In this document: piece after piece, positions 8,085 through 56,149 of the stretch | How positions within the stretch are numbered: position 1 is the stretch's first letter | Layout: each line of letters opens with the position of its first letter | Assembly: GCA_016931155.1 (NCBI GenBank) | Contig: JAFGFJ010000006.1 | Span: 314,896 to 378,895, forward strand | Direction of reading: 5' to 3' | Length of the DNA stretch: 64,000 nt | Source: Candidatus Dojkabacteria bacterium | Lineage (GTDB): Bacteria; Patescibacteriota; Dojkabacteria; B142; JAFGFJ01 | Translations under genes and position numbers: made by a program | The notes under the pieces: model-generated | Told to the model about the DNA's origin: nothing | What the model saw: only the letters and a program-made list of their open reading frames with translations | The model's database searches: none

Positions 8085-8609
8085 ATGAAAGCTTTGAAAT
8101 TAGTGCCCTATTTGGTACTTGTTTCTCTCATATCAGTAGGAGTGTACTTACTGATAGGAATAACAAATCAGGAGAAATTGCAAAGTTATTCTGACTTTAT
8201 TGAAACAAGTAGTGGCAAAGTACTTGAAGGGATAAACAAACAGAGTGAACAGATAAACAGAATTGGAAATATTTCGGATATTGAAGAAGGAGTAATAACG
8301 GATAATGAGGATATTTCAAGTAAGTTTAAGACTTTACTTGAAGCAGAAAAAAAAGCCTGGCAGGAATTAAAAAAGCCTGAAGGGTCTAAGGAAACTCAGA
8401 AACAAATGGAAGAGTTTTTTAAGGGTGCAGAAGAAAGCAATAAGCAGTTTGATGAGGCAATGATGGAAATAAAAATACTGAAAAAAGAAGATGAGCTTCT
8501 AAGTACAATTAAGGGCTACAATGAGAAAGTAACAAAATTTGCAGAAACATACGAAGAGCTTATTGAAAACTTAAATAATTATATTGATGAAAGTAACTTT
8601 ATACGATAA
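8085..8609 (+). CDS. Hypothetical membrane-anchored coiled-coil protein inserted between rplC and rplD
   Basis: 174-aa ORF starting 3 nt after the L3 stop and overlapping the L4 start by 26 nt. It has an N-terminal TM helix followed by a K/E-rich, coiled-coil-like region; no family recognised. Confidence 0.55.
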   Translation: MKALKLVPYLVLVSLISVGVYLLIGITNQEKLQSYSDFIETSSGKVLEGINKQSEQINRIGNISDIEEGVITDNEDISSKFKTLLEAEKKAWQELKKPEGSKETQKQMEEFFKGAEESNKQFDEAMMEIKILKKEDELLSTIKGYNEKVTKFAETYEELIENLNNYIDESNFIR

Positions 8610-21346: not shown

Positions 21347-22285
21347 ATGTTTCAATTAAATCAATTTAATGTAAAGAAAATAGAAGAAAGGGAGGATTAT
21401 GGTCTCTTTGAAATAGGTCCTCTTCCCAGAGGGTATGGTCATACTGTTGCAAATATATTGAGAAGGATTTTAATGTCTTCTATTGAAGGTGCTGCGATTA
21501 CTTCAGTCAAAATAGGAGGAATTAAACATGAATATTCAAGTCTTGAGGGTGTTCACGATGATATTCTCAAGGTTCTTCTTGGTCTAAAAAATGTTGTGCT
21601 TGTGAGCCATTCAGAAGATCCTCAAGTTTTGAAGTTGAACGTTAAAGGCGGAGCAAAGGCAAAAGAAGTGAAAGCAGGAGACATAGAAACGACAGGCGAA
21701 GTTGAGATAGTAAACCCGGATTACGTGATCACAACCTTATCTGGTCCGAAAGCCAAGATTGAAGCGGAAATTATTGTTGAAACGGGTATTGGGTATAAGT
21801 ATCCTGATGAGTCGAAAAGAAAAGAAATTGGAGTTCTGCCTCTGGATGCGAATTTTTCTCCTGTCAGAAGGATTAATACAAGAATAGTACAGGCTAGGGT
21901 TGGTCAGCAGACAGATCTTGATCAGGTAAATCTTGAGGTATATACTAACAGAGCCGTGAAAGCAAGTGATGTTTTATTGAAAGCAGTGCAAGCCCTTGAT
22001 GAAGTTGCAAATAGATTTGTTTCTCTCTTGGGTGGCACACCAAAAGAAATCGAGTACATACAGGATGAACCAGAGGTTGAAGAGAAGAAGGTTCAATTAC
22101 CAATTGAAGACCTTGGGCTTTCTACCAGACTAACAAATGCTCTTGTAAATTCCCACTATAAGGATCTTGTAGAGCTAGAGGGGATGGGTATGGAAGACTT
22201 TATGAGCATAAAAGGAATGGGGCAGAAGTCAGTTGAGGAGCTGTATGAGGTTATGAAAGAAAATGGATTGGAAACAAAAGAATAA
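21347..22285 (+). CDS. rpoA: DNA-directed RNA polymerase subunit alpha
   Basis: GPLPRGYGHTVANILRRILMSSIEGAAITSVKI N-terminal domain and C-terminal alpha-CTD (LGLSTRLTNALVN). Confidence 0.93.
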   Translation: MFQLNQFNVKKIEEREDYGLFEIGPLPRGYGHTVANILRRILMSSIEGAAITSVKIGGIKHEYSSLEGVHDDILKVLLGLKNVVLVSHSEDPQVLKLNVKGGAKAKEVKAGDIETTGEVEIVNPDYVITTLSGPKAKIEAEIIVETGIGYKYPDESKRKEIGVLPLDANFSPVRRINTRIVQARVGQQTDLDQVNLEVYTNRAVKASDVLLKAVQALDEVANRFVSLLGGTPKEIEYIQDEPEVEEKKVQLPIEDLGLSTRLTNALVNSHYKDLVELEGMGMEDFMSIKGMGQKSVEELYEVMKENGLETKE

Positions 22286-22995
22286 TGAAGAAAGGAAGAA
22301 AGATAAAAAAAATAGGAACAGATAAATCTCACAGGGTTTCTCTGTTGAAGAACCTTTCTTCATCGTTGATCATGACGGAGTATATGACTACTACAAGGGC
22401 AAGAGCCAGGGCATTTGTCCCCTATTTTGAAAGAGTAATTACTCTGGCAAGACCTGCCGATATCAATGCAAAAAGAAGAGTGATATCATTAATTCAAAAT
22501 GAAAAAGCTACAGATAAGATTTTTGATGTTCTTTTGAAGAGATTTGAAGATACCAAATCTGGCTTGGTGAGTGTTTATAAAATTGGGAACAGAAAAGGAG
22601 ATAATGCAGAAGTTGTTAAGCTTGTTTTGAAGGGATATGAACCACCAAAGAAAAAGACGAGGATAAAGGAGGAAAAGAAAAAGGAACAAAGTGAAGAAAA
22701 GATGCTTCAAAAAGATGAGAAGGGTCTTAGTAAAGAAACTAAGCTGAATATGGAAACAGATGTGAAGAAATCGCAAGAAAAGACTGCCGAGAAAGTAGCC
22801 GAAGTTCGAAAAGAACTGGCGAAACCAGAAGAGCCAGCGGGGGGAAATAAAAAGACTATTAAAAAGGAAAGAAGATCAGAGAATAAATCATCCAAGCAGA
22901 ATGGATCATTTTTTACAAAACTATTTGGATTTGGGAAAAAGGATCAACAAAAGACTACTGTCAAAGGAAGAGCTAGATCAAGATCAGGGATTTAA
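22285..22995 (+). CDS. rplQ: 50S ribosomal protein L17 with ~110-aa K/E-rich C-terminal extension
   Basis: RVSLLKNLSSSLIMTEYMTTTRARARAFVPYFERVITLA L17 core. Confidence 0.88.
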   Translation: MKKGRKIKKIGTDKSHRVSLLKNLSSSLIMTEYMTTTRARARAFVPYFERVITLARPADINAKRRVISLIQNEKATDKIFDVLLKRFEDTKSGLVSVYKIGNRKGDNAEVVKLVLKGYEPPKKKTRIKEEKKKEQSEEKMLQKDEKGLSKETKLNMETDVKKSQEKTAEKVAEVRKELAKPEEPAGGNKKTIKKERRSENKSSKQNGSFFTKLFGFGKKDQQKTTVKGRARSRSGI

Positions 22996-24026: not shown

Positions 24027-25316
24027 ATGAATCTAAATAGAACCAAATTAACATATGTAATACTTGGTTTAATTCTTCTATTTTCTTTTGTAACGAGAAT
24101 ATACAGAGTATGGATTCCTGCTGAGTACTATTTTGACGAGGTTTATCATGCTGTTACAGCAAAACTTTATGCCAGGAATGATCCTTCCGGGTATGAATGG
24201 TGGCATGATGAGCCAGAACCTGGTACTGCGGTTGAATGGCTACATCCCCCGATTGCAAAACTTACACAAGCTTTAGGAATAATTCTTATAGGTGAGAACA
24301 GTCTCGGGTGGAGAATATCTTCAGTTGTATTTGGAGTTGGCGTTGTTATGGCGACTTTTCTTGTTGCTAATAAACTTTCAAAATCAAGAAAAGTCGCCCT
24401 TTTGTCTGCAATTCTACTAAGTCTTGATGGTCTTGTTTTTGTCCAGTCACGTATAGCAATGAATGATATCCATGTTACTTTTTTTATTCTAATGAGTGTC
24501 TTTTTTTATTCAAAATGGAAAGACTCTCAAGAGAAACAGTTGAATCTTGTTTTGAGTGGTGTATTTACAGGCATAGCGATTGCTACAAAATGGAGTGGTG
24601 TGTTTCTGCTTGGGATATTTATTATTGATCAACTTCTTACATGGATGCCTCGAATGATCTCGAGAAAGAAGTTCCCATCTTTTGCTTTGCTCTCCAATTT
24701 ATTCATTAATTTTATTTTTCTGCCTGTGTTGATATATGTATTATCTTTTTCACAGTTTTTCCTTCAAGGGCATAGCTGGAAACAATTTGAAGGACTTCAC
24801 AGTCAAATATGGCATTATCAGACGAGTCTTGAAGCAACTCATCCTCGTCAATCAAGTCCAATTGAGTGGGTGTTGGATCTGAAGCCAGTCTGGATGTATG
24901 TGAATTATGATTCAGGAGATAAGGTTGGGAATATATATAATTTGGGTAATCCACTTATCTTTTTTGGAGGACTTATTGGTATTTTGGGGATAGTTTATAC
25001 AATTATTCGAACAAAAAACAGGAATTATATTTTGCTCGTTTTAGCATATTTGATCGTCTGGTTGCCATGGATGTTTTCTCCCAGAATAATGTTTTTCTAC
25101 CATTATTTACCCGCAGTACCTTTTCTGACAATAATACTTTCAATTTTCCTTATGTCTATGATAAATGCCAAGTCAAGATTGATAAAGTATTTGGCGTATC
25201 TATTCCTCTTTGCGTGTGCTATATGGTTTTTTCTTTTTTATCCATATTTAACAGGTCTTCCAGTCTCAAAAGAGTTTGTTTCAAAGGTTTACTATATCCT
25301 GCCGGGCTGGAAATAA
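24027..25316 (+). CDS. GT-C family glycosyltransferase, PMT/GT39-like (dolichyl/polyprenyl-phosphate-mannose protein mannosyltransferase-like)
   Basis: Polytopic membrane protein; YFDEVYHAVTA matches the loop-1 DE motif of the PMT family (vFDEVHfgkfa). Confidence 0.6.
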   Translation: MNLNRTKLTYVILGLILLFSFVTRIYRVWIPAEYYFDEVYHAVTAKLYARNDPSGYEWWHDEPEPGTAVEWLHPPIAKLTQALGIILIGENSLGWRISSVVFGVGVVMATFLVANKLSKSRKVALLSAILLSLDGLVFVQSRIAMNDIHVTFFILMSVFFYSKWKDSQEKQLNLVLSGVFTGIAIATKWSGVFLLGIFIIDQLLTWMPRMISRKKFPSFALLSNLFINFIFLPVLIYVLSFSQFFLQGHSWKQFEGLHSQIWHYQTSLEATHPRQSSPIEWVLDLKPVWMYVNYDSGDKVGNIYNLGNPLIFFGGLIGILGIVYTIIRTKNRNYILLVLAYLIVWLPWMFSPRIMFFYHYLPAVPFLTIILSIFLMSMINAKSRLIKYLAYLFLFACAIWFFLFYPYLTGLPVSKEFVSKVYYILPGWK

Positions 25317-25399
25317 GTCTGCTGGAATTCCCTTAGTTTGCTCTTTATCCTTAGCTTCTCTATAATTTCATAGTAATTAGATCTGTTGTTCTACTGTCT

Positions 25400-26095
25400 A
25401 TGAAAAAAATTACGGTTATTATATTCGCTGGAATTGTCCTTCTAGGGCTTGCTGTTTGGTCACCATGGAACAGGCTGGATTTCTCTTGGCAAAGACTTCT
25501 GGGAATTGAAAAGCCGGAAGGTATGGCAGGGCTTACAGTCTATTCACTTGGGGGGAATATGGAGGTAAAAATAGATGGAGAGTTGAAGGGAGAAGTAAAT
25601 CTTGCCAATTCTCCTCTTGAAATACACGATGTTGTTCCTGGTGAGCATAAAATTGAGTTAATTAGAAAAGGTTCACAGGATAACATTTATGCCGAGTATT
25701 TTAAAAATTTAAATTTTGAGGGTAACATAAATTCAATACTAAGTTATGAGCTTGGACCAACAGAAGAGTATAGTTCGGGCTATGTATTTTATGCTGTATC
25801 CAAAGGGAATTATGATGCTCTTGCTAGTTTGTCTGTGGTATCAAGACCTGAGCAGGCAAAGATCTTTCTAGATGGAATAGATGTGGGAAATGCTCCTTTA
25901 AGAGATGTAAAAATTTCTCTCAATCAATTACATAGGCTCAGGTTTGAGAAGGAGGGATTTGAATCACTTGAATTTGAAATTTTACCAAAGGAACAGGCAG
26001 ATCGAGATAAGCTTAAAGATTATAGTCTGGCAGTTGAGGCTCGACTGTTTAAGCTTCCAATAAATATAGTAGAGGAAGTATCAAATGAGAAATGA
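25400..26095 (+). CDS. Membrane-anchored PEGA-domain protein (two PEGA-like repeats)
   Basis: N-terminal TM; repeats such as VYSLGGNMEVKIDGELKGE and VSRPEQAKIFLDGIDVGNAPL resemble PEGA beta-sandwich modules. Confidence 0.5.
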   Translation: MKKITVIIFAGIVLLGLAVWSPWNRLDFSWQRLLGIEKPEGMAGLTVYSLGGNMEVKIDGELKGEVNLANSPLEIHDVVPGEHKIELIRKGSQDNIYAEYFKNLNFEGNINSILSYELGPTEEYSSGYVFYAVSKGNYDALASLSVVSRPEQAKIFLDGIDVGNAPLRDVKISLNQLHRLRFEKEGFESLEFEILPKEQADRDKLKDYSLAVEARLFKLPINIVEEVSNEK

Positions 26096-29000
26096 AGCTA
26101 ATAAGCTAAAAAGTACGAGTAAATACCCAACCTCAATAATTGTTAAGGGTGTTGATACCATTGGTGTAGAGCTTGCAGGTTCACTTATTGAACAGGGGGG
26201 GTATGTAATTATGATAGACACCTACAATGAGGAATCTTTCGGGAAAATAAAACATCTGTTGGAAAAAGATCTGTTTACATTTGTTGATTTTTCAGCTCTT
26301 TCTCATCTGGAAGATGATTTGAGGAGATTGGATTATGTTTTTTTTCTGGGACATCAGGAGACTGACATCGAAAATGAAATTTCTACTCAAGAATTTCTCG
26401 AAGTATCAAATTACTTGAATGCGATTCTTGACCTTTCAACTAAATTTGAAGCTAAATTCTTATTAACAAATTCGATAAGAGCACATAGGAGACTGATAGG
26501 AGAGCAGGACGTTCATCTCAATTTTGATCTAGAAAAGACTAAAAAACACACGGTATATTCAGAAGTTGAAATTCAAAGATATGCAGAAAGTTTGGTGATG
26601 GAGTACTACGAGAAGGTTTCTTTGAATGTAAGAATTTTGAGAATGGGAGAAGTAATTGGTGAGGCTGTTGAGTTTAAAGAAAAGACTCCTCTTGGAAAGC
26701 TTATATTTGATGCAATATCAGGAAATGACCTAGAGATAACTGGTGATGGTCTTGATGAAGAGTATTATGTTCATTATCTTGATGCTGTTTACGGATTATT
26801 GAAGGGTGAATTTACTCCAAATACTAAGGGGAAGATTTTTTCGTTGGCAAATCAAGAGCCGGTTACTACATTATCTTTAGCGTATAAGGTTCAGGAATTA
26901 GAGCCAAAGGCTGGAGAAATAAAATTTGTAGAAAAAAAAGGTCCACTGTCACTCAAACTATACAAGCCAGCTGAAAACCTGGCAGTTATCGGCTGGAGGC
27001 CAAAAGTATCTTTTGACAGAGCCCTGTCACAGTCTATTGAACAAGCATATAACCACTTTAGTATCGAATCTTCTAGTCAGGTGGAAGATGTAAGGGATGA
27101 AAAAAAGAATGATGTGCTTTCCAAAAAACTTAAAAACTTCTTTTTTATCTCAGACAATAACGGAGAAAAGGAGGATACATATAAGCCAAAAGGAGAAGGC
27201 TATGGTGCTCTTTCGAGACTTATTGCAGAAAGAAAATCTCAGGAAATGGGAAGAAAAGGTAGCATTGTTCTGGCAAATGACAAACTAAGAGAAAAGGTCA
27301 AGGGTCAAAATCAGAAACCTGCTATTCAAAGATTGGGTACTAAAGCAAATAAGTTTTATGACAGAATTAAGGTTCAGTTTAATTTCCTTACTAGATTGAC
27401 TCTTAGTGAATTTGCTCTCTATTTGTTTCTTGTAATGATTTTGGCAGTGGTATATTTCGGAGTAGTATCTCCATTACTTAGTCTTGGTAAAGATGTGTAT
27501 TTTGGGAACAGAAATCTTGAAGAAGCAAAAAATAGATTTATTAGTAATGACATAATTGGTGCTAGGGAATCTGCCAAGAGTTCTCTCAATAACTTTGATG
27601 CTGCAGAGAAAACACTAAACAGATTTGAAGCATTTTTTAATCTTGTTTCCCAGAAAGAAGTATTCATTTCAGGGACTACTCTCCTGAGAGGAGCAAAAAT
27701 GTACTCTGAAGGTCTTGAACAATCATTCTCAGCTGTCTCTCCAGCGTACGAGTATTTCGAGAAGTTTGAAGATAATGTCTATTACAGACCGAATGACGGG
27801 AATCTTCTTGTTTCTGAGTCCAGTGCCGATTATTCAGAGTATCTTCAGAAGATGTCAGGAATGGAGATAGTAGCAGATGATGGGATCAGCAAAATAGTAT
27901 CAGCAACAGCTCTTATGTCAACTGCAAGAAAGAACTATTTACCTAAAACAGTAATAGAAAAAATAAATTCTATTGTAAATAATATTGATGAGACTGAGGC
28001 TGAGCTTCAAAGTGCAAAAAAAACGATTAGATATTTACCTGATCTACTGGGAGGAGATGGCCCAAAATCTTACATTATTATTCTCCAGGATAACTCAAGA
28101 TATAACCCTTCAGGAGGCAAAATCAATTCATATGCTTTCTTAACATTTGAAAAAGGTGGTTTAAAATCTATTAAGGTTGAAAATGCATCCAGCCTAAACC
28201 TGTCATTTGATAGGTTGAATCCAAAAACACTTGACCAGATCAATCTGATTTCGTTTCAGAATCTAAAAGTAGAGGACGTAACTCTCAGTGATTTTCAGCT
28301 CATAAATGATTTTGATCTGTTTAGCAGTGAAATTATTCCTTACCTTGAAAATTATTTTGAGAGGGATATTGATGGCGCCATATTTTTAAATATTAACAGT
28401 CTTGAAAAATTAATTGAATTGTATGGCGGAATTGAAGTCGAGCAAATTGAATTTGACGGGAAAAATCTTCTGATGAATGTTGATCTGGTTCTAAGAGACA
28501 ATAGGGAGGAAAATAGAAGAACAGAGATTATTACTCAGGTATTTGCGCTTGTGCTTCAGAAAATATTCACTTCAACAGGAGAAAAAACGCTGGAACTTGC
28601 TTCTCTTTCAAATGTTCAGCTGGAAGTAAAGGATATGATGCTTCAGTTCGAGGGTGAATATTATCAGGAGCAGATTGAAACAAATAATTGGAATGGGAGG
28701 TTTAACAACAACTCAGATTTTATTAAGATTGCAGTGGTTTCAAAGGCAAGGGAATTTTCTCAAACAAAATATCCTAACTTAAATATTGATATAAATGATA
28801 GGTTGAAGTCTGACTTAACAACTGTTAAACAAGTTACAATTGAACCTAAAAGTCTTGAAGATCTTGATTATGTGACTGTATGCCTTCCTGCTGGAGCTAC
28901 AGAATTAAATTTTGGTGAAATTAATCCTTTACTGTACAACCAGAATTTTAGTGCTGGAAATGAGTGTGTGAGTATAAAATTTGGTCAAATAAGCAGGGCT

Positions 29001-29234
29001 GTGATATCATACAAGACCCCAGCTTTTGAAAGTGTAAGGGGCAATAGTTACAATTACAACGTAAGTATCCAAAATACTCCTGGACTCAATCTGATTTATG
29101 ATTATGAGTTGGAATTTGATCCGGGTTTGTACCCTCTTGAGTATGACGATAGAGGATTCCTCCAAAGAGATAAGCTGATATATGCAGGTACTCTTGATGG
29201 AAATTTAATTTTGAATTTAAAATTCGGAAGATGA
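26085..29234 (+). CDS. Large single-pass membrane protein: N-terminal degenerate NAD-epimerase/SDR-like Rossmann domain, TM helix, ~600-aa extracellular domain (DUF4012-like by recall)
   Basis: The N-terminus shows epimerase-like blocks (ITGDGLDEEYYVHYLDAVYGLL) but lacks an intact GxxGxxG and a YxxxK lysine. TM at about aa 435-460. The ectodomain motif LLGGDGPKSYIIILQDNSRYNPSGG resembles DUF4012, from memory only. Confidence 0.5.
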   Translation: MRNEANKLKSTSKYPTSIIVKGVDTIGVELAGSLIEQGGYVIMIDTYNEESFGKIKHLLEKDLFTFVDFSALSHLEDDLRRLDYVFFLGHQETDIENEISTQEFLEVSNYLNAILDLSTKFEAKFLLTNSIRAHRRLIGEQDVHLNFDLEKTKKHTVYSEVEIQRYAESLVMEYYEKVSLNVRILRMGEVIGEAVEFKEKTPLGKLIFDAISGNDLEITGDGLDEEYYVHYLDAVYGLLKGEFTPNTKGKIFSLANQEPVTTLSLAYKVQELEPKAGEIKFVEKKGPLSLKLYKPAENLAVIGWRPKVSFDRALSQSIEQAYNHFSIESSSQVEDVRDEKKNDVLSKKLKNFFFISDNNGEKEDTYKPKGEGYGALSRLIAERKSQEMGRKGSIVLANDKLREKVKGQNQKPAIQRLGTKANKFYDRIKVQFNFLTRLTLSEFALYLFLVMILAVVYFGVVSPLLSLGKDVYFGNRNLEEAKNRFISNDIIGARESAKSSLNNFDAAEKTLNRFEAFFNLVSQKEVFISGTTLLRGAKMYSEGLEQSFSAVSPAYEYFEKFEDNVYYRPNDGNLLVSESSADYSEYLQKMSGMEIVADDGISKIVSATALMSTARKNYLPKTVIEKINSIVNNIDETEAELQSAKKTIRYLPDLLGGDGPKSYIIILQDNSRYNPSGGKINSYAFLTFEKGGLKSIKVENASSLNLSFDRLNPKTLDQINLISFQNLKVEDVTLSDFQLINDFDLFSSEIIPYLENYFERDIDGAIFLNINSLEKLIELYGGIEVEQIEFDGKNLLMNVDLVLRDNREENRRTEIITQVFALVLQKIFTSTGEKTLELASLSNVQLEVKDMMLQFEGEYYQEQIETNNWNGRFNNNSDFIKIAVVSKAREFSQTKYPNLNIDINDRLKSDLTTVKQVTIEPKSLEDLDYVTVCLPAGATELNFGEINPLLYNQNFSAGNECVSIKFGQISRAVISYKTPAFESVRGNSYNYNVSIQNTPGLNLIYDYELEFDPGLYPLEYDDRGFLQRDKLIYAGTLDGNLILNLKFGR

Positions 29235-29695
29235 AACATAAGACTGTAATAACGAAAGAAGGTTTAAAGGATTTGAAAAATGAGCTTGATACCAGGAAGG
29301 ATAAGTTGAAAGAGATTGCTGATAAAATTGATGAGGCACGTCAGCAGGGAGACCTTTCTGAGAATGCTGCTTATACTACGGCTCTTTCAGAGAAAGAAAT
29401 GAATGAGGCGAAAATTAAGGAACTGGAAGATAAAATAAGTGGCTCGATAGTAGTTGAAGCTGATCCTTTAAATCCAGAAGTTGAACTTGGCGAGAAGGTT
29501 CTGGTGCGGCGGAGTTCTGATAACAAAAGGTTAACATATGAAATTGTTGGGATTGAAGAATCCAATCCGAGTGAAGGGAAAATATCTATAGGCTCTCCTA
29601 TTGGCAAGGCTTTGGCACATAAGAAGAAGGGAGATAAAGTAAAAGTTAAACTGCCATCTGGAGAGGAGGAGTTTTTAATTGAGGAAATTGCATAA
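29231..29695 (+). CDS. greA: Transcription elongation factor GreA
   Basis: N-terminal coiled coil with GDLSENAAY acidic tip motif and C-terminal FKBP-like domain. Confidence 0.88.
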   Translation: MKHKTVITKEGLKDLKNELDTRKDKLKEIADKIDEARQQGDLSENAAYTTALSEKEMNEAKIKELEDKISGSIVVEADPLNPEVELGEKVLVRRSSDNKRLTYEIVGIEESNPSEGKISIGSPIGKALAHKKKGDKVKVKLPSGEEEFLIEEIA

Positions 29696-29715
29696 TCAGT
29701 TTTCTCCTGAAAATT

Positions 29716-30981
29716 ATGGAAAGACATTCAGTGCCCCAAAATATTATGGATGTCGAGTTCAAGCTTTTTGGAAGCCTGACCGTAAGACAGTTCGCTAACC
29801 TTGCAGGATCTATTGTCGTTGCGGTTATTTTATATTTTTTTAATATTCCCGGAATTATCAAATGGCCAGCAATCGTCGGTTTTGTTTTCTTGGGCATAAG
29901 TTTGGCACTGGTTAAGATAAATGGTCAAACATTTGGTACTTGGCTTGGCAATTTTCTGGCTTCTATGTTTAGTTCCCAGAGGAAAATATGGAAGAAAGAT
30001 CCGAAAGTTCCTGAGATACTTACAAAGACTTACCGTCCACGAGTAAGTAATGAACAGCTTGTTTCTGCGAAGAAAAAAGAGTTACCTCCTTTTCTACGTG
30101 AGGATATAATTCAATCTACAAACGTAGTAGATGAAGAGGAGGAAGAGCGGCTAAAGAAATTAGAAAAATACATTCTTGGTGGTACCTCTTCAACGATAAG
30201 TGAGCAATTAATTTCAGACGAAGAAAAAGCACAACGACCGGTAATAATTGATCCTTCAGATCAAAATCTTGCTGGCACAATGAATACGGCAAATGAGGAT
30301 AATTATTCTATAAATCAGTCGGACGAATTCGCAGTAATTGGAAAGAAGATGGCTAATCAGAGAGAGCGACCGATAAGCTCAAGACTTGTGCATAAGAACC
30401 TTGCGGAAAACATAGGAATTGCTGTAAGTGAAGATACTAAAGAGTCCGGTTTGGGCAAGGAAAAAGAAAAAAAGTCAGAAATAGGTTATCTTTCTGAGAA
30501 ACCTGTTAATGATATGAACAGAGGATTAGATGTGAAAAGGAGTTCTTCCGACGAATTGATAGAGGCTAATAAAATACTGCAGGAAAGGATACAGGAACTT
30601 ACAGAAAAAGCGAAAAAATCTCCTGATGACTCTCAGATAGCTCAAAAACTTGCAGAGATGGAAAAACGTCTGGTGGAAATTCAGTCGGGAGGTTCGTTCG
30701 CTAATGAAAAAATAGTATCTCAAAAACCAAATGTTATTAGTGGTATAGTAACTGATAAAGAAAATAAATTACTTCCTGATGTTAGGGTGTTGATTAAGGA
30801 CAGAAGGGGTTTTTTGGTTAGATCACTGATTACTGATAAGCAAGGTTACTTTGTTACGACAACTTCACTTCCTGACGGCGATTATTTAGTTGAATTTGAA
30901 AGCGATAGACATCCTTTTGACCAGTATAAAGTTAACCTGAACGGGTCTTTGAAAGATACGTATAAATTTACTGCCAGATGA
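29716..30981 (+). CDS. PrgI/VirB3-like membrane protein fused to a long coiled-coil and a C-terminal CarboxypepD_reg-like beta-sandwich domain
   Basis: N-terminal FKLFGSLTVRQFANL plus two TM helices resembles the PrgI family, which sits upstream of VirB4 in Gram-positive T4SS. The C-terminal ISGIVTDKENKLLPDVRVLIKDRRGFLVRSLITDKQGYFVTTTSLPDGDYLVEFE resembles the CarboxypepD_reg fold. Confidence 0.5.
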   Translation: MERHSVPQNIMDVEFKLFGSLTVRQFANLAGSIVVAVILYFFNIPGIIKWPAIVGFVFLGISLALVKINGQTFGTWLGNFLASMFSSQRKIWKKDPKVPEILTKTYRPRVSNEQLVSAKKKELPPFLREDIIQSTNVVDEEEEERLKKLEKYILGGTSSTISEQLISDEEKAQRPVIIDPSDQNLAGTMNTANEDNYSINQSDEFAVIGKKMANQRERPISSRLVHKNLAENIGIAVSEDTKESGLGKEKEKKSEIGYLSEKPVNDMNRGLDVKRSSSDELIEANKILQERIQELTEKAKKSPDDSQIAQKLAEMEKRLVEIQSGGSFANEKIVSQKPNVISGIVTDKENKLLPDVRVLIKDRRGFLVRSLITDKQGYFVTTTSLPDGDYLVEFESDRHPFDQYKVNLNGSLKDTYKFTAR

Positions 30982-31000
30982 TTTATCTTATTAGTTAATA

Positions 31001-31684
31001 ATGGCGTTTTTAGGAAGAAAAGAAACAACAACTCAGGAACATCTTGATATTGAGGATGTCAGAGATGATCTTGTTGTGTTAAAAAATGGTAACGTTTCTC
31101 TTGTTATGGAGACGACTTCTTTGAACTTTGATCTTCTTTCGGAAGAGGAACAGGATATACGAATTCTTGCCTTTGCAGGGCTTATGAACTCATTGAATTT
31201 CCCTGTACAGATAGTTGTTAGAACAGAAAGAACAGACGTAACTGATTATGTAGATAAGCTAAAGATCTATAAGGAAAAACAGATTTCGTTGGCCTTAAAA
31301 AGACAAATAGAGATTTACATGCAATTTATTAAGAATCTTACTGTGAACACCGAGGTTCTTGATAAAAGATTCTTTGTTGTTATACCAGGAATAATATCAA
31401 GTATACAAAGAACTAGTGCTGTGAGACAGATCTTCGGTAAACCAGTAAAAATTAAAAATATCGAGGAGGTGCTTGAAAAAGCCAAATTACTTCTTTATCC
31501 AAAACGTGATCATCTGCTGAAGCAGTTTCAAAAAATGGGGATAATTGCAGAGCAACTAAAAACTGATGATTTAATACGTTTGTATTACGGTATTTATCAA
31601 CCGGATACTCCTGGAATTAAGAAATTAATTTTGAAAAAACAGGATTTTTCTACTGGGATTGTAGAAACTTTAAAAGAAGAATAA
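31001..31684 (+). CDS. VirB4/TraC-family T4SS ATPase, N-terminal domain fragment (separate ORF)
   Basis: HLDIEDVRDDLVVLKNGNVSLVMETTSLNFDLLSEEEQDIRILAF matches the N-terminal block of Gram-positive VirB4 homologues (Tn916 Orf16/TcpF type). Confidence 0.6.
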   Translation: MAFLGRKETTTQEHLDIEDVRDDLVVLKNGNVSLVMETTSLNFDLLSEEEQDIRILAFAGLMNSLNFPVQIVVRTERTDVTDYVDKLKIYKEKQISLALKRQIEIYMQFIKNLTVNTEVLDKRFFVVIPGIISSIQRTSAVRQIFGKPVKIKNIEEVLEKAKLLLYPKRDHLLKQFQKMGIIAEQLKTDDLIRLYYGIYQPDTPGIKKLILKKQDFSTGIVETLKEE

Positions 31685-31688
31685 CAAT

Positions 31689-33635
31689 ATGTGGATATTT
31701 GGAAAAAGCAAAAAAGAAAAGGAAAAAGAGAAGGAACAGACAAGTCAGTCAGAGGATCTTGAAGAGAAGGCAATTGAAAAATTCGCTGAGGGATTGATTG
31801 ATGTAAAAGATCTGATAGCTCCGTCAGCGATGGAGGTGGATTTTAACGATGTTCTTGTAGGAAATAAGTACTTTAGAACTTTCCTTGCTACTGGATTTCC
31901 AAGCCATGTCGGACCAAATTGGCTTTCTCCACTTATCAATTTTGACTTTCCTGTAGATATAAGCACGTTTTATTATCCTGTGGATAGTTCAATGATAATG
32001 CAAAGACTCAAACGAAAGATTGGAGAAATGGAGGCAACAATCAGTCTTGATCTTGAAGCAGGAAAAGTGGTTGATCCATATGTTAAGGTTGCACTTGAAG
32101 ATGCAAAGAATTTACAGGAACAAATAGCAAAAGGTACAGAGAAATTTTTTCACTTTGCTCTTTATGTAACTATTCGAGCAGGCAGTATCAGGGAGCTTGA
32201 AAAAATCTCGAAGAATCTTATTTCAACAATGTCTTCTATTAGTGTGATTCTAAAGGTGGCTACTTTGCAGCAGGAACAAGGTTTTCAGAGTGTTGTACCT
32301 GTAGGAATAGACAAGATCTATATGACCAGAAATATGGATACGACCTCTTTGGCGACCACATTCCCATTCGTTAGCTCAGAGCTTACTATGGATACTGGTA
32401 TTTTGTACGGAATAAATAAACACAATAGAAGTCTTGTGATTTTTGACAGGTTTGAACTTGAAAATGCTAATGCAGTTGTTTTTGCAACTTCCGGGGCGGG
32501 AAAAAGTTATATGGTAAAGCTTGAGGCTATGAGAAGTCTTATGTTCGGGACTGAAATACTGATAATTGATCCCGAAAGAGAATATGAGAAGCTAACGAAA
32601 ACAATTGGAGGAGAATACGTATCGTTTTCGCAAGATGGCGCGCAAAAATTGAATCCATTTGAGCTTTCAGGAATTTATGACAAAGATGAAGACGAGCTAA
32701 GAATGAAAATTCTATCACTTCACGGCCTTATGAGGATTATGATGGGTGGAGATTTTTCTCCGGAAGAATCTGCAATACTTGATAGGGCACTTATTTTGAC
32801 GTATAAAGAAAAAGGCATTACGGTTGATCCTGTCACACACAAAAAAGAACCACCTCTTCTTGAGGATTTATATAAGATTCTCCAGGCAATGGCAGAGCCT
32901 CAAGCTCATAATCTTGCGACAAGACTTGAGAGGTTTGTAAGAGGAAGTGCAGCTGGTATTTTTGACAGAAAATCAAATATTGAGATTAAGAATACATTTA
33001 CTGTTTTTAGTATTCGAGAGTTGAGTGATGACCTAAGGCCTATAGCAATGTATATGATGCTTGATTTTATTTGGACAAGAGTGAAAAGACTTCGAAAGAA
33101 AAGACTTCTAATAGTGGATGAGGCATGGTGGATGATGCAGTATCCAGATGCAGCAAAATTTATCCACTCAATGGCAAAAAGAGCCAGAAAGTACGGTCTT
33201 GGGCTTACTACAATTACTCAAGATGTTGAGGACTTTTTGAGTACGGATTACGGGAAAGCTGTTGTTACAAATTCATCAATACAAATATTAATGAAGCAAA
33301 GTCCTGTAGCTATAGATAAGATTCAGAAGATATTCTATTTGTCTCAAGGTGAGAAGAACTATCTACTTTCAGCAGGTATTGGGGAAGGTCTATTCTTTGC
33401 CGGATCAAATCATGTGGCAATTCAGGTAATTGCGAGTGAAAATGAGCATAATCTAATAACTACATCTTATAAAGATATGGAGAAAGAGGAGAAGAAAAAA
33501 GCGGCATTGGCAGAAGAAGCTGTAAAAAATGCCGGAATTGGTATTGCAGATATTCCTGAAAATACAAACCAGCAAGTTTCCCCTACTGATAATATTAATT
33601 CCTATACTGGTAATACTTCTTCCAATGCGGTATAA
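31689..33635 (+). CDS. VirB4-like T4SS ATPase, central + C-terminal ATPase domains
   Basis: YFRTFLATGFPSHVGPNWLSPL middle-domain block; Walker A FATSGAGKSY; Walker B LLIVDEAWWMM. Confidence 0.8.
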   Translation: MWIFGKSKKEKEKEKEQTSQSEDLEEKAIEKFAEGLIDVKDLIAPSAMEVDFNDVLVGNKYFRTFLATGFPSHVGPNWLSPLINFDFPVDISTFYYPVDSSMIMQRLKRKIGEMEATISLDLEAGKVVDPYVKVALEDAKNLQEQIAKGTEKFFHFALYVTIRAGSIRELEKISKNLISTMSSISVILKVATLQQEQGFQSVVPVGIDKIYMTRNMDTTSLATTFPFVSSELTMDTGILYGINKHNRSLVIFDRFELENANAVVFATSGAGKSYMVKLEAMRSLMFGTEILIIDPEREYEKLTKTIGGEYVSFSQDGAQKLNPFELSGIYDKDEDELRMKILSLHGLMRIMMGGDFSPEESAILDRALILTYKEKGITVDPVTHKKEPPLLEDLYKILQAMAEPQAHNLATRLERFVRGSAAGIFDRKSNIEIKNTFTVFSIRELSDDLRPIAMYMMLDFIWTRVKRLRKKRLLIVDEAWWMMQYPDAAKFIHSMAKRARKYGLGLTTITQDVEDFLSTDYGKAVVTNSSIQILMKQSPVAIDKIQKIFYLSQGEKNYLLSAGIGEGLFFAGSNHVAIQVIASENEHNLITTSYKDMEKEEKKKAALAEEAVKNAGIGIADIPENTNQQVSPTDNINSYTGNTSSNAV

Positions 33636-33643
33636 ATAAAAAG

Positions 33644-34204
33644 ATGTTTCCACTAGATATTTTTACAAAACAATTCAACCTGAGTGGGCTAGTACTTATA
33701 GCCTCTGTTGCTATTTTTTCTTTGGCAGTAATTATTCTTTTGGTGAATGTTGTTATATTAAACAGGAAGCTAAAAAAAGCTACTACACCGACGTATGGTT
33801 TTGCAGGAAAGCCAATATATCCCATTATTGCAACATTGCTAATATCTGTATCTATACCTCTAGCTGTATATTCTTTATCTCAGGAGACTACTTTTGAACA
33901 AAAAGCAGAAGAAAATGTGATTCTACAGAGTAGTCATTATGTGGTATCAAGAGATGGGGAGAATTTACGGCTTGAGTTTAATGTTGTTCCATATGTAGAT
34001 GGGGTAGCTTGGGGAGAAAAGTCGTTTGATATTTTCTGGTCATTTAAGGGAAAAACATCCAAAACTAGCTATGAGTTTAATAAATCTGCGATTAATCCCA
34101 GTAAAATGACAATTACTTTGCCAAAAGGTGAGTATGATCTTACTATTCTTGTTACTTATGAGAATAGATCTCAGAGGTTAGAACAAAAGCTTGTTCTAAA
34201 ATAA
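33644..34204 (+). CDS. Hypothetical membrane protein (2 TM + ~100-aa extracytoplasmic domain) downstream of VirB4
   Basis: Hydrophobic segments at aa 15-40 and 60-80; no recognised family. Confidence 0.5.
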   Translation: MFPLDIFTKQFNLSGLVLIASVAIFSLAVIILLVNVVILNRKLKKATTPTYGFAGKPIYPIIATLLISVSIPLAVYSLSQETTFEQKAEENVILQSSHYVVSRDGENLRLEFNVVPYVDGVAWGEKSFDIFWSFKGKTSKTSYEFNKSAINPSKMTITLPKGEYDLTILVTYENRSQRLEQKLVLK

Positions 34205-34233
34205 TTCTTGTTTGTGCGTGCTATAATTATTTC

Positions 34234-34626
34234 GGTCTAGTCAGAACGGTCGCTAAGCGTGAGCTTAGAGGAAAGTCCGAACTCCTCTTGGCACAATAGT
34301 CAGGACAAGGTACCTTGGAGACAAGGCAGGGAGTGATCTCTGGGATTAGAGCAACAGAAAGTAAGGAGCCTGCGAATTGCAGGCGATCTTGAAAGGGTGC
34401 CTCCGGGTTTTTCTGGGGGGCGTACATGAAATTTCATGTATGACGTGTAAGAGACCACCGGTCACGATAGTAATATCGAGATGCTGGTAATCCCTATCGG
34501 GAGCAAGATCAAAGTGTAGATCGCAAAGTGTTTGTTCTTTTGATTAATCAGAACAAATACTGCTAGAGAAATGACCGTCATTCTGGTGTTGCCAGAAAGA
34601 ACAGAATTCGGCTTATTGACTAGACC
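34234..34626 (+). ncRNA. rnpB: RNase P RNA, bacterial type (M1 RNA)
   Basis: GAGGAAAGTCCGAACTCC (P4 5' strand) and ACAGAATTCGGCTTA (P4 3' strand) covary with the E. coli GGG/CCC pair. The P1 helix GGTCTAGTCA...TGACTAGACC closes the ~393-nt molecule. The ORF-track ORF 34227-34427 (-) is spurious. Confidence 0.85.
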
Positions 34627-34734
34627 ATTTTTTCAACCACTTCAGGAGTATTTCCATTTGGGTGCATAATACTTCCTGTATAGAAACCATTATTTCTTGA
34701 AAATTTCAATTTACAGTGGGAACACATAGATACA

Positions 34735-39274: not shown

Positions 39275-40033
39275 CTAGAGTTCCAAAGCAATTACCACAA
39301 TTCTGTTGTCACTTCCCCCGGGTACTCCTGATTGAAGTGAACAGGATATTATCTTGATAAAGTTTCGTTTTGATGTTTCGTAAATATTTACGTCGTTCGG
39401 ATTTTTTATTGTGACACTCCGAACTGAGTATCTTATTGGCTTTCCTGATGGATCATTTACCTGAATTAGATCACCCTTTTCTAGAAGATTTATATTCCAG
39501 CAACTTCTTGGGTCATCTTGTTGAAAGTATCTTCTGTGGCATAGTACTATTGTTTCACCGTTTCCAGGAGTACTGGAAGATGGATACATCCAAAATCCTT
39601 GATCCATTAGAGAATCACCATCGCTTCCCCCGAACACATTTGCTCTCACATTTATTTTTGGAATGATTAACTCTCCAATTACTCCTGTTGTAACTTTGGT
39701 ATCGAATGCAAACTTTTGTTGCTCAGGCGAGAGAATATCATCTCTTGTATATATTTTCTCTTTATTCAATTGACTGTCTTGAGCAGTGGAAGTATCTTCT
39801 GTACTGCTTTTTTGTTTCTCTTCTTCCACCTTCTTAACCTCTGACATTGAAGGAACTAAAAAATTATATCCGTACTTCTGCCTACCATTTTCTCCTTTTA
39901 AAAATACTGAAATAAGGCTTATATGTGTTGTTCTTGCCTTTGTGTATAGAAAAAGTCCGCTAACAATAAGAAAGCTTAGTATAAACAAAATAAAAATCAC
40001 CTTTGTTGTTGAATCTTTTTCCTCGTTTTCCAT
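39275..40033 (-). CDS. Sortase-family transpeptidase (N-terminal TM anchor)
   Basis: His (VLCHRRYF), Cys (FIKIISCS in place of LTLITC) and downstream Arg (DNRIVVIA) in sortase-like spacing. Confidence 0.6.
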   Translation of the reverse strand: MENEEKDSTTKVIFILFILSFLIVSGLFLYTKARTTHISLISVFLKGENGRQKYGYNFLVPSMSEVKKVEEEKQKSSTEDTSTAQDSQLNKEKIYTRDDILSPEQQKFAFDTKVTTGVIGELIIPKINVRANVFGGSDGDSLMDQGFWMYPSSSTPGNGETIVLCHRRYFQQDDPRSCWNINLLEKGDLIQVNDPSGKPIRYSVRSVTIKNPNDVNIYETSKRNFIKIISCSLQSGVPGGSDNRIVVIALEL

Positions 40034-40105: not shown

Positions 40106-41092
40106 ATGCATTATTCCAATATAAAAACAATGAGGAAGGAATTTGATGAGAAAAAAGTGAGGCTGGCTCTGATGGTTTGGGGATTTATGGTTATCCTTAT
40201 TGGGCTTATTATTGGAATTGTGACGGTTGGACCACAGCTTACTCCGCTTGAGGCACAAGGACAGATTTGCACGACTGGTGCAGATTGTCCTCCTTGTGAA
40301 TATCCACAGGTAGCTTTCTGCGACCATAGCGGATCTTCCAATCCTTGTCGTTCAGGAGAGGGTATATGTACATGTAGAGGCGTACCTCAAAGTGACCCAA
40401 CTTGTGGAGGTGCTGTTTGTATCTCAATTTCTCCGAGTGAGGCATGTGATCCTGGTGGGTGTCCTTCGGGTTACACTGACTGCGGGATAAGTGGTCACAG
40501 AACTGATAATTCTTCAGAATGTCAAGCTTTTGGCAGTTGTACTACTAGATGTGCTTCGTGTAATAACCCAACTACATTTGTTAGATATTGCAGACCGGAA
40601 GTTTCACCTGTTGAACCATCACCGTCACCGTCACCGTCACCATCACCGTCGCCCTCCTACCCAGACTATGAAATAGTAAAGGATGTTATTGACTCAGATA
40701 GTTTTTACGAAATAGGGGAGACTGTGAACTTTAGTGTTACAATCAGAAATACAGGGGATGTAACATTTGAAAAGGTAAAATTTAGGGATGTGTACAATCC
40801 TGCACGATTGGATTATCTATCTAGTCGTGGTAATAAAAATGGTGGCACAGACGTAGAGTTAAATTTCAATATTATTGAAAGTACTGGAATTATAACTCAT
40901 TCAAACCTTGCGGTAGAGTTGGGAAATTTGAATCCTGGGGATTACTATCGAATATTTTTTAGCTTTAGAGCTTTGGTAAGTGTTCCGAGAACATGCAACG
41001 AAGCCTTTGTTAATCCTGATGATTTGGGTGAGAAAAGGGACGATGCTTGTGTCTCGATTAATACTGTGTTTATTCCCGTACCTGATTTATAA
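40106..41092 (+). CDS. Secreted/membrane-anchored Cys-rich protein with (SP)n linker and C-terminal DUF11-like beta-sandwich domain
   Basis: N-terminal TM; ~22 Cys within ~120 aa; PSPSPSPSPSPSPS; C-terminal YEIGETVNFSVTIRNTGDVTFEKVKFRDVYNPARLDYLS resembles the DUF11 conserved repeat domain. Confidence 0.55.
   Translation: MHYSNIKTMRKEFDEKKVRLALMVWGFMVILIGLIIGIVTVGPQLTPLEAQGQICTTGADCPPCEYPQVAFCDHSGSSNPCRSGEGICTCRGVPQSDPTCGGAVCISISPSEACDPGGCPSGYTDCGISGHRTDNSSECQAFGSCTTRCASCNNPTTFVRYCRPEVSPVEPSPSPSPSPSPSPSYPDYEIVKDVIDSDSFYEIGETVNFSVTIRNTGDVTFEKVKFRDVYNPARLDYLSSRGNKNGGTDVELNFNIIESTGIITHSNLAVELGNLNPGDYYRIFFSFRALVSVPRTCNEAFVNPDDLGEKRDDACVSINTVFIPVPDL
40616..40654 (+). repeat. Hexanucleotide tandem repeat (TCACCG/TCACCA)n encoding the (Ser-Pro)n linker
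   Basis: ccatcaccgtcaccgtcaccgtcaccatcaccgtcgccc read directly. Confidence 0.8.
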
Positions 41093-54240: not shown

Positions 54241-54312
54241 TGAGTAGCTATCTCCGAAGCACTTCAAGTCTCTGTGCATGAGTAGCTCTTCCCGCAGCAC
54301 TTCAAATTCCTG
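54241..54312. repeat. Imperfect 34-bp tandem direct repeat spanning the 3' end/stop codon of the downstream hypothetical gene
   Basis: tgagtagctatctccgaagcacttcaagtctctg followed by tgagtagctcttcccgcagcacttcaaattcctg. The second copy encodes the C-terminal ...LKCCGKSYSC; the first lies just beyond the stop. Confidence 0.7.
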
Positions 54313-55538: not shown

Positions 55539-56149
55539 TTCATTTCAGAAACGAGCAGTGTTGAAGAATTAATTTTCATGGCTTTCTGCTCGGAAAGATA
55601 AAATAATCTTGGCTGGTTTTCTGGCTTTTCCAGTGATGGAATTACAGTTGCGGCACAGCAGCGGTATTTCACCGCTTTTCCCATTTAATCCCGAAAAGAG
55701 AACCTGAAATATACTAGAGTAAAAATTATAATTTTGCAAGAAGTGTAGGTCTGATGTATTTGATGTACAACTTCAAGACCTATGTAGCAACTGAGACTCT
55801 ACGGGCTGTACAGGTTCATGAACATATGCAACAGCCATAGTAGAATACGTTGATGTTTCAAATTATTAATGATTCAAACAAAACGGTTGTTGTATAACGA
55901 GTTTAATCTTTAATATGTTTCATCACACGATAGAGAAGGCGAGTAAAATCAGCTTATTTTTTTCATTAACTGTAGAGACTCTTACAGAGAGCCAAGGATA
56001 AACTAGATGCTTGTTATGTATTATATGTAAGACAAGCAAACTCTCAATGAAGGAAGTAGTAGAGACCACGGCTAAGTTTTGCTCATCATTATTGTTGATC
56101 TTTTGCCAAATGAATTGTACTCTGTATTAGTCAGATTCCTGCCCTAATT

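Follow-up and report, generated by a model that had tools for sequence, protein, structure and literature searches.

The stretch of DNA analysed here (hereafter, the window) is 64,000 nucleotides long and comes from contig JAFGFJ010000006.1 of a Candidatus Dojkabacteria bacterium, a member of the Patescibacteria, or Candidate Phyla Radiation (CPR). Positions 24027–34204 contain eight open reading frames (ORFs), all on the plus strand, at exactly the coordinates given in a first-pass annotation of the sequence, which described them as co-directional genes following rpsI. Three of these genes, prgI, trsD and virB4, most likely encode the cytoplasmic-membrane motor of a Patescibacteria-type type IV secretion system (T4SS) that resides in the Dojkabacteria chromosome with no conjugation genes nearby. 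The PrgI-TrsD-VirB4 core belongs to an already published system and is neither a new apparatus nor an integrative and conjugative element (ICE). Patescibacteria possess a monophyletic clade of VirB4 ATPases related to the MPF-FATA class of Gram-positive bacteria, and in the survey that describes this clade, the dataset of which included Dojkabacteria, the T4SS comprises VirB4, TrsD and PrgI/VirB3, is chromosomal and often located near dnaA, almost never includes a relaxase, and shows a patchy distribution of VirB6 and VirB2-like pilin arrays (Quinonero-Coronel et al. 2025, PMC12102498). A homologous cluster is essential for the epibiotic growth of Southlakia (Wang et al. 2023, PMC10633639), and the system has been reviewed (PMC12857230). 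The initial description of a chromosomal, non-conjugative VirB3/VirB4 module of a small-genome CPR bacterium, distinct from an ICE, agrees with the even GC content and with the synteny in other Dojkabacteria; the suggestion that the apparatus is uncharacterised is superseded by these publications.

The motor is identified by the scores of VirB4 and PrgI against their respective families and by the complementary coverage of a single VirB4 model by TrsD and VirB4. The virB4 gene (31689..33635, +) encodes a 648-aa T4SS ATPase of the CD1110/MPF-FATA type that matches NF045971, the CD1110 family, with 392 bits (cutoff 325), as well as PF19044 and PF12846. The Walker A (GAGKS, residues 269–273) and Walker B (DE, residues 477–478) motifs are invariant among the aligned homologues, and the protein has the features of the catalytic MPF-FATA-type VirB4 of the Patescibacteria T4SS. 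Its identity to Patescibacteria homologues is 52–92%; the closest relatives, at 65–92%, are assigned by name to Candidatus Dojkabacteria or candidate division WS6, and the named relatives across the entire range of this similarity listing are overwhelmingly Patescibacteria metagenome-assembled genomes (MAGs), with a few titles that carry other, probably unreliable labels. An exact-match look-up of the window VirB4 retrieved no record, probably owing to a different choice of start codon. The preceding gene, trsD (31001..31684, +; NF041427, NF045975), encodes a 227-aa TrsD-like protein, homologous to the N-terminal domain of VirB4 and encoded separately from it: it covers positions 103–233 of the full-length VirB4 model NF045975, and the 648-aa ORF covers positions 279–893. 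In a survey for which 80 GTDB loci were fetched with the VirB4 alignment, ORFs called and all neighbours clustered (counts are given over 84 loci), a gene of the TrsD family is located directly upstream of virB4 in 80 of the 84. Given this regularity, and given that the VirB4 relatives are usually 600–660 aa long, the TrsD and VirB4 pair appears to be the standard arrangement and not a broken gene; the two ORFs that had been taken for a two-piece ATPase are indeed present, and it is only the notion of a split gene that does not hold. Some very long VirB4 homologues (P0094, P0103 and others) were considered as fusions of VirB4 with TrsD or with sm186, the product of the gene that follows virB4, and were rejected, their extensions being unrelated. 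In other Dojkabacteria-like loci (L009–L020), VirB4 is 800–880 aa long, with a C-terminal extension of ~200 aa that is missing from the window's clade, and virB4 is followed by a conserved ORF of ~80 aa (family 15) and a Lon-like AAA protein encoded on the opposite strand (family 16).

The prgI gene (29716..30981, +) encodes a VirB3/PrgI-like membrane anchor with a C-terminal CarboxypepD_reg-type beta-sandwich. The match to PF12666 scores 41.2 bits (cutoff 27), so that PrgI and VirB4 alike are significant in hidden Markov model (HMM) searches, and PF13620 (CarboxypepD_reg) is detected at the C-terminus with an E-value of 3.5e-7. A PrgI homologue occupies the equivalent position beside virB4 in 72 of the 84 loci, as expected of a Patescibacteria-type T4SS. 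The median CPR homologue is 370 aa long, compared to 91 positions in the Pfam model; PF12666 is found in 68 of 71 homologues, and the fusion to CarboxypepD_reg in 57 of the 71 and in nearly all database matches. No mention of this fusion was found in the literature, and its family-wide occurrence is a modestly new detail. Structure prediction, which had been proposed for the extension, gives a clear result: the AlphaFold2 model, built from an 80-sequence alignment, has predicted local distance difference test (pLDDT) values above 90 in the structured parts, which are a transmembrane (TM) hairpin (residues 23–41 and 46–65), an amphipathic helix (73–85), a helical hairpin (276–323) and the beta-sandwich (340–421, pLDDT ~97), and the linkers are disordered and charged. 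A Foldseek search started with the sandwich identifies carboxypeptidase-D regulatory, CnaB/SdrD-B and SusC-NTE domains and no T4SS part. The N-terminal 26 residues of PrgI are nearly invariant, and the 30 residues after TM2 include 5–6 Lys/Arg. The termini of VirB3 are cytoplasmic in characterised systems, the TM hairpin places both ends on the same side, and the segment after TM2 is rich in Lys/Arg, so that the extension is predicted, with reasonable confidence, to be cytoplasmic and not extracellular as originally proposed. The existence of natural VirB3-VirB4 fusions points in the same direction (PMC12102498). Across the CPR classes, the median identity is 30% for the sandwich compared to 35% for the membrane part, and 13% for the linker; the clearly external ectodomain of the DUF4012 protein discussed below shows only 10–24%, compared to the 30% median of the sandwich.

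The motor genes are under very strong purifying selection and are vertically inherited. Between the window and locus L001, the identity is 71% for VirB4, 70% for RpsK, 63% for TrsD and for RpsD, 54.5% for SecA and for RpsI, 48% for RpoA and 44% for GreA. Because VirB4 is better conserved than RpoA and its Walker motifs are invariant, the locus has the character of core machinery, not of a decaying ICE. The high conservation of VirB4 and TrsD is consistent with a requirement for epibiotic growth, which has been shown in Southlakia only.

The search for conjugation genes covered the window ORFs of at least 90 aa (the non-ribosomal genes together with some genes of the ribosomal operon), which were scanned against Pfam, and the precomputed annotation of ~10 kb beyond each window end (~84 kb altogether); no relaxase, VirD4/type IV coupling protein (T4CP), VirB6 or integrase was detected in this range, in agreement with the first-pass annotation. 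A locus with neither a relaxase nor a T4CP is what is expected of the Patescibacteria T4SS. The HMMs for the PF18895-positive pilins, the polytopic family 17, family 12 and the M23 hydrolases of other CPR loci identify nothing in the 64-kb window at E-values up to 1, and the apparently minimal local gene set is a modestly new detail. Such a set, combined with a VirB4 of the conjugative MPF-FATA (CTn2 CD1110) type and only three recognisable T4SS genes within ~84 kb, could be taken for a decayed or domesticated remnant of an ICE that is on its way to being lost, its relaxase, coupling protein, channel and integrase having already disappeared. This scenario is extremely improbable: VirB4 and TrsD are conserved as well as or better than ribosomal proteins, the Walker motifs do not vary, the PrgI-TrsD-VirB4 trio is near-universal across the CPR lineages (72–80 of the 84 loci), the gene order shared with the surrounding housekeeping genes is stable, the composition shows no anomaly, neither a tRNA nor an integrase is adjacent, and the homologous system is essential in Southlakia (PMC10633639). 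The GC content is even across the window (0.34–0.40, with no break at the block), the single tRNA is 20 kb from the block, and all neighbours are housekeeping genes, which argues against mobility; none of the hallmarks of an ICE (relaxase, coupling protein, integrase or att sites, variable presence) was encountered, and the synteny is conserved across genomes. On the strength of the even GC content, the lack of an adjacent tRNA and the conservation of VirB4 and TrsD, the ICE interpretation was rejected. A VirB4/HerA-like ATPase that functions outside secretion, in anti-phage defence (as a MADS mad8-like protein) or in a DNA-processing machine, is also very improbable. A PADLOC search does produce a mad8 match (71 bits, E-value 2.5e-20), and there are weak matches to HerA and CedB/CedD; set against these, the VirB4 models of T4SSs give a far better score (392 bits, exceeding the curated cutoff), no other component of a defence system is detected, the obligatory PrgI/VirB3 and TrsD partners are T4SS-specific, and in other lineages, the equivalent trio has T4SS pilin arrays and wall hydrolases as neighbours. 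With a weak mad8 match and no partner genes, the defence-system assignment was rejected.

The motor genes are embedded in a longer conserved gene string. In two other Dojkabacteria sequences, CP129475.1 (a 1.17-Mb NCBI chromosome) and a 1.2-Mb JGI contig, rpsI is followed by PEGA-(Epimerase+DUF4012)-greA-PrgI-TrsD-VirB4 and a ~187-aa protein. The same order recurs in L004, L005, L021 and L084, and the whole seven-gene block is found in L001–L005, L021 and L084, with greA (29231..29695, +) keeping its position in all of these. The greA product belongs to the GreA family of transcript cleavage factors (TIGR01462, 141.7 bits, cutoff 139). The string is closed by rnpB (34233..34631, +), the gene for RNase P RNA class A (RF00010, 134 bits), which is found in the corresponding position, 14–57 nt 3' of the sm186 homologue, in L001 (12557-12918), L005 (12449-12779), L021 (12437-12760) and L084 (7821-8208). 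In L005 and L021, the block is otherwise intact and is not preceded by rpsI. The conserved unit is PEGA-DUF4012-greA-prgI-trsD-virB4-sm186-rnpB, and the PMT gene and the ribosomal operon are incidental neighbours. The initial impression of a module fused to the end of the ribosomal superoperon is accordingly valid for a sub-lineage only and fails in L005 and L021; similarly, a synteny comparison across the CPR, which had been proposed for greA-prgI-virB4 next to the ribosomal cluster, shows only the trio to be generally conserved, GreA, PEGA and sm186 being found beside the trio in the window's own clade only and the ribosomal location in a sub-lineage. Within the block, the PEGA and DUF4012 genes overlap by 11 nt and the DUF4012 gene and greA by 4 nt, the other gaps are 4–83 nt, and sm186 is separated from rnpB by 28 nt. 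From this tight spacing, the overlapping stops and starts, and the movement of the block as a unit, we infer that PEGA-DUF4012-greA-prgI-trsD-virB4-sm186, possibly together with rnpB, form a single constitutively expressed operon. The 3' end of sm186 includes a promoter-like site (TTGCCA-17-TACTAT, 34118-34146).

In Pacebacteria-like and Microgenomates-like loci (such lineage labels, including Pace-like and WWE3-like, are approximate and come from named MAGs only, many TPA_asm organism labels, such as 'uncultured Saccharibacteria/Gammaproteobacteria/Pseudomonadales', being unreliable), the trio is located beside dnaA, dnaN, rnpA, yidD, yidC, jag and rnhA. Most of these genes were named from representative sequences, and rnhA by Pfam; the presence of dnaA, dnaN and rnpA agrees with PMC12102498. 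Frequently present in these loci as well are T4SS_pilin arrays (PF18895), polytopic membrane proteins of a family that Pfam does not recognise, and proteins of very large size. The latter, 700–1335 aa in length, combine an N-terminal coiled coil and Gly-rich TM segments with a C-terminal Peptidase_M23, C39-like or NAGPA domain (e.g., L036 2401-6405, L063 6917-9613, L072 12758-16150 and L041 4059-7169) and are likely to be PrgK/VirB1-like wall-remodelling subunits. Family 12 (~330 aa, one TM, no Pfam match) is encoded directly upstream of prgI in 13 loci, and RNase P is represented near virB4 in other CPR lineages by the protein gene rnpA instead of rnpB.

All domains named in the first-pass annotation (PMT, PEGA, degenerate epimerase with DUF4012, GreA, PrgI and VirB4) are matched in the HMM searches, far more strongly than chance would allow. 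The first ORF, 192 nt downstream of rpsI (24027..25316, +; 429 aa, ~9 TMs), matches PF02366 (88 bits) and PF16192 (PMT_4TMC, 65 bits), contains the loop-1 DE motif (YFDEVYH, residues 34–40) expected of GT39 protein O-mannosyltransferases, and aligns with yeast Pmt1 (6p25) while lacking the MIR domain; its 97 bits are far below the NCBIfam equivalog cutoff of 800. The protein looks like an intact GT39-like GT-C glycosyltransferase of the bacterial type. In L001 and L003, rpsI is followed by PEGA with no such gene in between, and the blocks of L005 and L021 do not contain it either; L004 and L084 are not informative in this respect because their contigs end inside the DUF4012 gene. Based on this synteny, PMT was rejected as a member of the system, and the proposed coupling to surface glycosylation is not supported by these otherwise identical blocks.

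The PEGA-domain surface protein (25400..26095, +; 231 aa) matches PF08308 with 53.5 bits over two stretches and is anchored by one N-terminal TM; its gene opens the conserved block and is retained in L001, L002, L003, L005 and L021. The next gene (26085..29234, +) encodes a 1049-aa protein with a weak match to Epimerase (PF01370, 22.5 bits, cutoff 20.9) and a match to DUF4012 (PF13196, 35.2 bits, cutoff 28). It consists of a cytoplasmic SDR/UXS-like domain (residues ~18–328; SDR, short-chain dehydrogenase/reductase), one TM (443–461), a helical stalk and the DUF4012 ectodomain. This architecture is constant in 23 relatives, with a cytoplasmic part of 300–450 aa, a single TM and an ectodomain of ~580 aa, and all 24 ectodomains match PF13196. 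A search of PDB sequences with the ectodomain profile detects no solved relative, only coiled-coil noise. The cytoplasmic domain aligns with UDP-glucuronate decarboxylase (PDB 4gll, E-value 3.7e-9). The SDR motifs are degenerate across the clade: GxxGxxG reads KGVDTIG, and YxxxK is lost (Y-SEVEIQ, with no Lys), so that the catalytic signature of extended SDRs is missing; the glycine motif survives only in the WWE3-like relatives, and the domain is unrecognisable in the Pace-like ones. Because the fold-level match is real and the NAD-binding and catalytic motifs are lost, the domain is best described, judging by these motifs, as a predicted pseudoenzyme domain. The gene that follows virB4, sm186 (33644..34204, +; 186 aa), encodes a protein with 2 TMs that was assigned to no family and has the same sequence as NCBI protein JW796_03255, annotated as hypothetical in a Candidatus Dojkabacteria bacterium. 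It contains a conserved cytoplasmic loop (YGFxGKP), the best-conserved part of the protein, and an extracellular FN3/Ig-like beta-sandwich; a full HMMER scan recovers homologues, and the gene is always 1–14 nt from the virB4 stop. Relationships to VirB8/PrgL (NTF2-like fold) and to the VirB2 pilin (T4SS_pilin profile) were rejected on the basis of the fold and of the HMM search. The sm186 protein is a candidate lineage-specific accessory subunit, and its family, with 2 TMs, an FN3-like domain and a conserved cytoplasmic loop, is a modestly new detail.

The association of DUF4012 with virB4 extends beyond the window's clade. A DUF4012-family gene is located within 10 kb of virB4 in 19 of the 35 loci with full flanks, and in all 30 cases the two genes are on the same strand. 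Three arrangements are observed: directly upstream of prgI (in the WWE3-like loci L028, L047, L053 and L055), directly downstream of virB4, and 5–9 kb downstream behind a dnaA…rnhA string. The chance that one gene of a ~1-Mb genome falls in such a window is ~2%, with the reservation that the loci are not independent. No mention of this linkage was found in the text of PMC12102498 or in the searched part of its supplement; DUF4012 was previously noted only as an envelope family of CPR and Gram-positive bacteria, including the EPS locus (EPS, exopolysaccharide) of Bifidobacterium (PMC5412050, PMC6744442). The linkage is a modestly new detail. The DUF4012 protein, the PEGA protein and sm186 are, tentatively, candidate lineage-specific envelope partners of the motor and, given that no VirB6, VirB8, pilin or wall hydrolase is encoded within ~84 kb, may cover part of the roles of these components.

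A serious alternative, which falls only a little short of an even chance, is that two unrelated modules lie side by side: envelope polysaccharide or surface-layer genes (PMT, PEGA, DUF4012) and an unrelated sm186 on the one hand, and PrgI-TrsD-VirB4 as the only T4SS genes on the other, their adjacency reflecting genome compaction and operon packing in a ~1-Mb genome. PMT can indeed be missing from the block (L001, L003, L005, L021), DUF4012 is linked to EPS/CPS loci (CPS, capsular polysaccharide) in Bifidobacterium and has drawn attention solely as an envelope family of Gram-positive and CPR bacteria (PMC5412050, PMC6744442), and in many lineages it is found 5–9 kb away behind housekeeping genes. 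Against this interpretation, DUF4012 remains linked to and co-oriented with virB4 in three gene orders, including lineages in which the trio has left the dnaA region, and is directly upstream of prgI in the WWE3-like loci; the seven-gene block relocates as a whole in L005 and L021; and sm186 always adheres to the virB4 stop, its conserved part being cytoplasmic.

Several observations weigh against the interpretation of the locus as a secretion motor with envelope partners or limit its reach. The TrsD-like ORF matches NF041427 weakly (E-value 4.6e-6; 26.6 bits against the NCBIfam curated cutoff of 200), and a 50-sequence TrsD profile finds no solved relative among PDB sequences. The VirB6 or pilin genes may be encoded elsewhere in the genome. 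The accessory assignment derives from synteny, and greA and rnpB, which share the string with no plausible role in a T4SS, show that adjacency here need not mean shared function. The survey loci are phylogenetically non-independent; in the Pacebacteria-like loci, dnaA-dnaN-rnpA-yidD-yidC-jag-rnhA separate DUF4012 from virB4, so that the linkage may merely reflect a shared origin-proximal neighbourhood; and the other Dojkabacteria loci, L009–L020, have no DUF4012, GreA or sm186 genes nearby (within 10 kb for DUF4012). Promoter and terminator scans of the block perform no better than on shuffled sequence and are uninformative on operon structure. The direction of transport proposed below is conjectural, and the Dojkabacteria system is known from its sequence.

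In the proposed mechanism, TrsD and VirB4 would together reconstitute a full VirB4, as suggested by homology with the R388 and Gram-positive T4SSs; the reconstituted VirB4 would form a hexamer that docks onto the cytoplasmic segments of PrgI, where it would power the assembly of, and transport through, a cell-envelope conduit. The best guess from the literature, and not from this sequence, is that the conduit would be a contact-dependent one that leads to the host cell. The function of the Patescibacteria T4SS has been called 'completely unknown', with effector delivery and nucleotide or DNA uptake under discussion (PMC11665869, PMC12857230), and a 2026 preprint reports that a different member of the phylum takes up host RNA and has T4SS-like tubes (bioRxiv 10.64898/2026.06.21.733656). 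The conduit could import host nucleic acid or cytoplasmic material, a possibility that we rank slightly above the export of effector proteins, which is itself conceivable; an exclusive role in a pilus, adhesion or envelope assembly seems unlikely. A more far-reaching synthesis would have the T4SS pared to PrgI-TrsD-VirB4, the missing channel, stalk and surface parts supplied by the DUF4012 protein (with its 590-aa ectodomain), PEGA and sm186, the family-wide CarboxypepD_reg domain, attached to PrgI through a long flexible linker, acting as a cytoplasmic receptor for substrates or partners in place of the coupling protein, and DUF4012 being an unrecognised widespread component of the Patescibacteria T4SS. 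This combination is rather doubtful.

The Patescibacteria T4SS is essential in the sole organism tested, and a naturally minimal version, with three canonical genes and an ATPase that has diverged less than RpoA, may reveal which parts the machine cannot do without. The locus also offers candidates for partners, namely, the DUF4012 protein, the conserved cytoplasmic loop of sm186 and the beta-sandwich of PrgI. If these partners are real, they would help to explain how a Gram-positive-type T4SS spans the CPR envelope and, with no coupling protein, recognises its substrates; otherwise, the locus is a further example of the published system.

The flanks of the string consist of core housekeeping genes and rnpB, as first described. 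Upstream are secY, map, rpsM, rpsK, rpsD, rpoA, rplQ, rplM and rpsI; rnpB is followed by genes for a Zn-peptidase, SecA, a sortase and a DUF11 surface protein. Other functions identified by Pfam in the window (nusA, ylxR, fusA, tuf, ribosomal proteins, gltX, pyruvate:ferredoxin oxidoreductase, acetyl-CoA synthetase-like) are all housekeeping or metabolic, and five ORFs belong to no Pfam family; the ~10 kb beyond each end contain SufBC, an LCP protein, a GT4 glycosyltransferase, a sigma factor and GH1. The sortase (39275-40033, −) is divergent from the DUF11/CLIPPER-type surface protein (40106-41092, +), and this pair, which is retained in L001 and L084, fits Gram-positive-style surface display in this lineage. 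In the S10 operon, a 174-aa ORF without a Pfam match (8085-8609, +), with an N-terminal TM and an otherwise charged, coiled-coil-like sequence, is inserted between rplC and rplD. The rplQ product (22285-22995, +) is 236 aa long, with the L17 domain confined to residues 20–113 and a C-terminal extension of ~120 aa; its relatives are 176–179 aa long. A cobalamin riboswitch (55594-55722, −; 60 bits) is located directly upstream of a gene (54264-55538, −) for a 424-aa protein that has no Pfam or PADLOC match and contains a C-terminal Cys cluster (CDICGK…CCGKSYSC); this may be an uncharacterised B12-regulated gene. SufB carries an intein with a LAGLIDADG homing endonuclease domain (L085 1371-3863, ~6–8 kb upstream of the window start).

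Among known systems, the closest to the window locus is the Patescibacteria T4SS, typified by SEML1_0006-0019 of Southlakia epibionticum: in both, a VirB4 with MPF-FATA affinity is directly preceded by a TrsD-like protein and, before that, by PrgI/VirB3, and the genes are chromosomal, with no relaxase and no T4CP nearby. The window locus differs in that the surrounding ~84 kb encode neither a VirB2-like pilin array nor a VirB6 homologue nor a VirB1-like hydrolase (components that occur in Southlakia and in many classes without being universal), and in its location after the ribosomal operon (elsewhere in sister genomes) and not near dnaA/dnaN. In addition, its lineage adds PEGA, DUF4012, greA, sm186 and rnpB, which are not mentioned in the text of PMC12102498 or the searched part of its supplement. 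With the MPF-FATA systems of Gram-positive bacteria (pGO1 TrsC/TrsD/TrsE, CTn2 CD1110, pCF10 PrgI/PrgJ), the locus shares the CD1110-family VirB4 and the PrgI-family anchor and, with pGO1, a separate TrsD-like protein (PMC12102498). It differs from them in lacking a relaxase, a T4CP, VirB6 (PrgH), a VirB8-like protein (PrgL), a hydrolase (PrgK) and an adhesin, in not being part of a mobile element and, compared to the canonical PrgI, in the extension of ~330 aa that ends in the CarboxypepD_reg beta-sandwich.

The ComB system of Helicobacter pylori and the archaeal Ced system, which import nucleic acid, also employ a VirB4-family ATPase without a relaxase or T4CP, and the window VirB4 shows weak matches to CedB/CedD; the idea of an uptake machine has been raised for Patescibacteria (PMC11665869). 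The likeness does not go beyond the ATPase, and components specific to ComB or Ced were not detected. As for DUF4012, the Gram-positive EPS/CPS proteins (BL105A_0406 of Bifidobacterium longum) and CPR family fam000574 have in common with the window protein the PF13196 ectodomain and its sharing between CPR and Gram-positive bacteria (PMC6744442, PMC5412050), but the window protein is distinguished by fusion to a TM and a predicted cytoplasmic SDR-like pseudoenzyme domain, and by the recurrent linkage of its gene family to virB4 in place of genes for glycosyltransferases, Wzz or Wzy.

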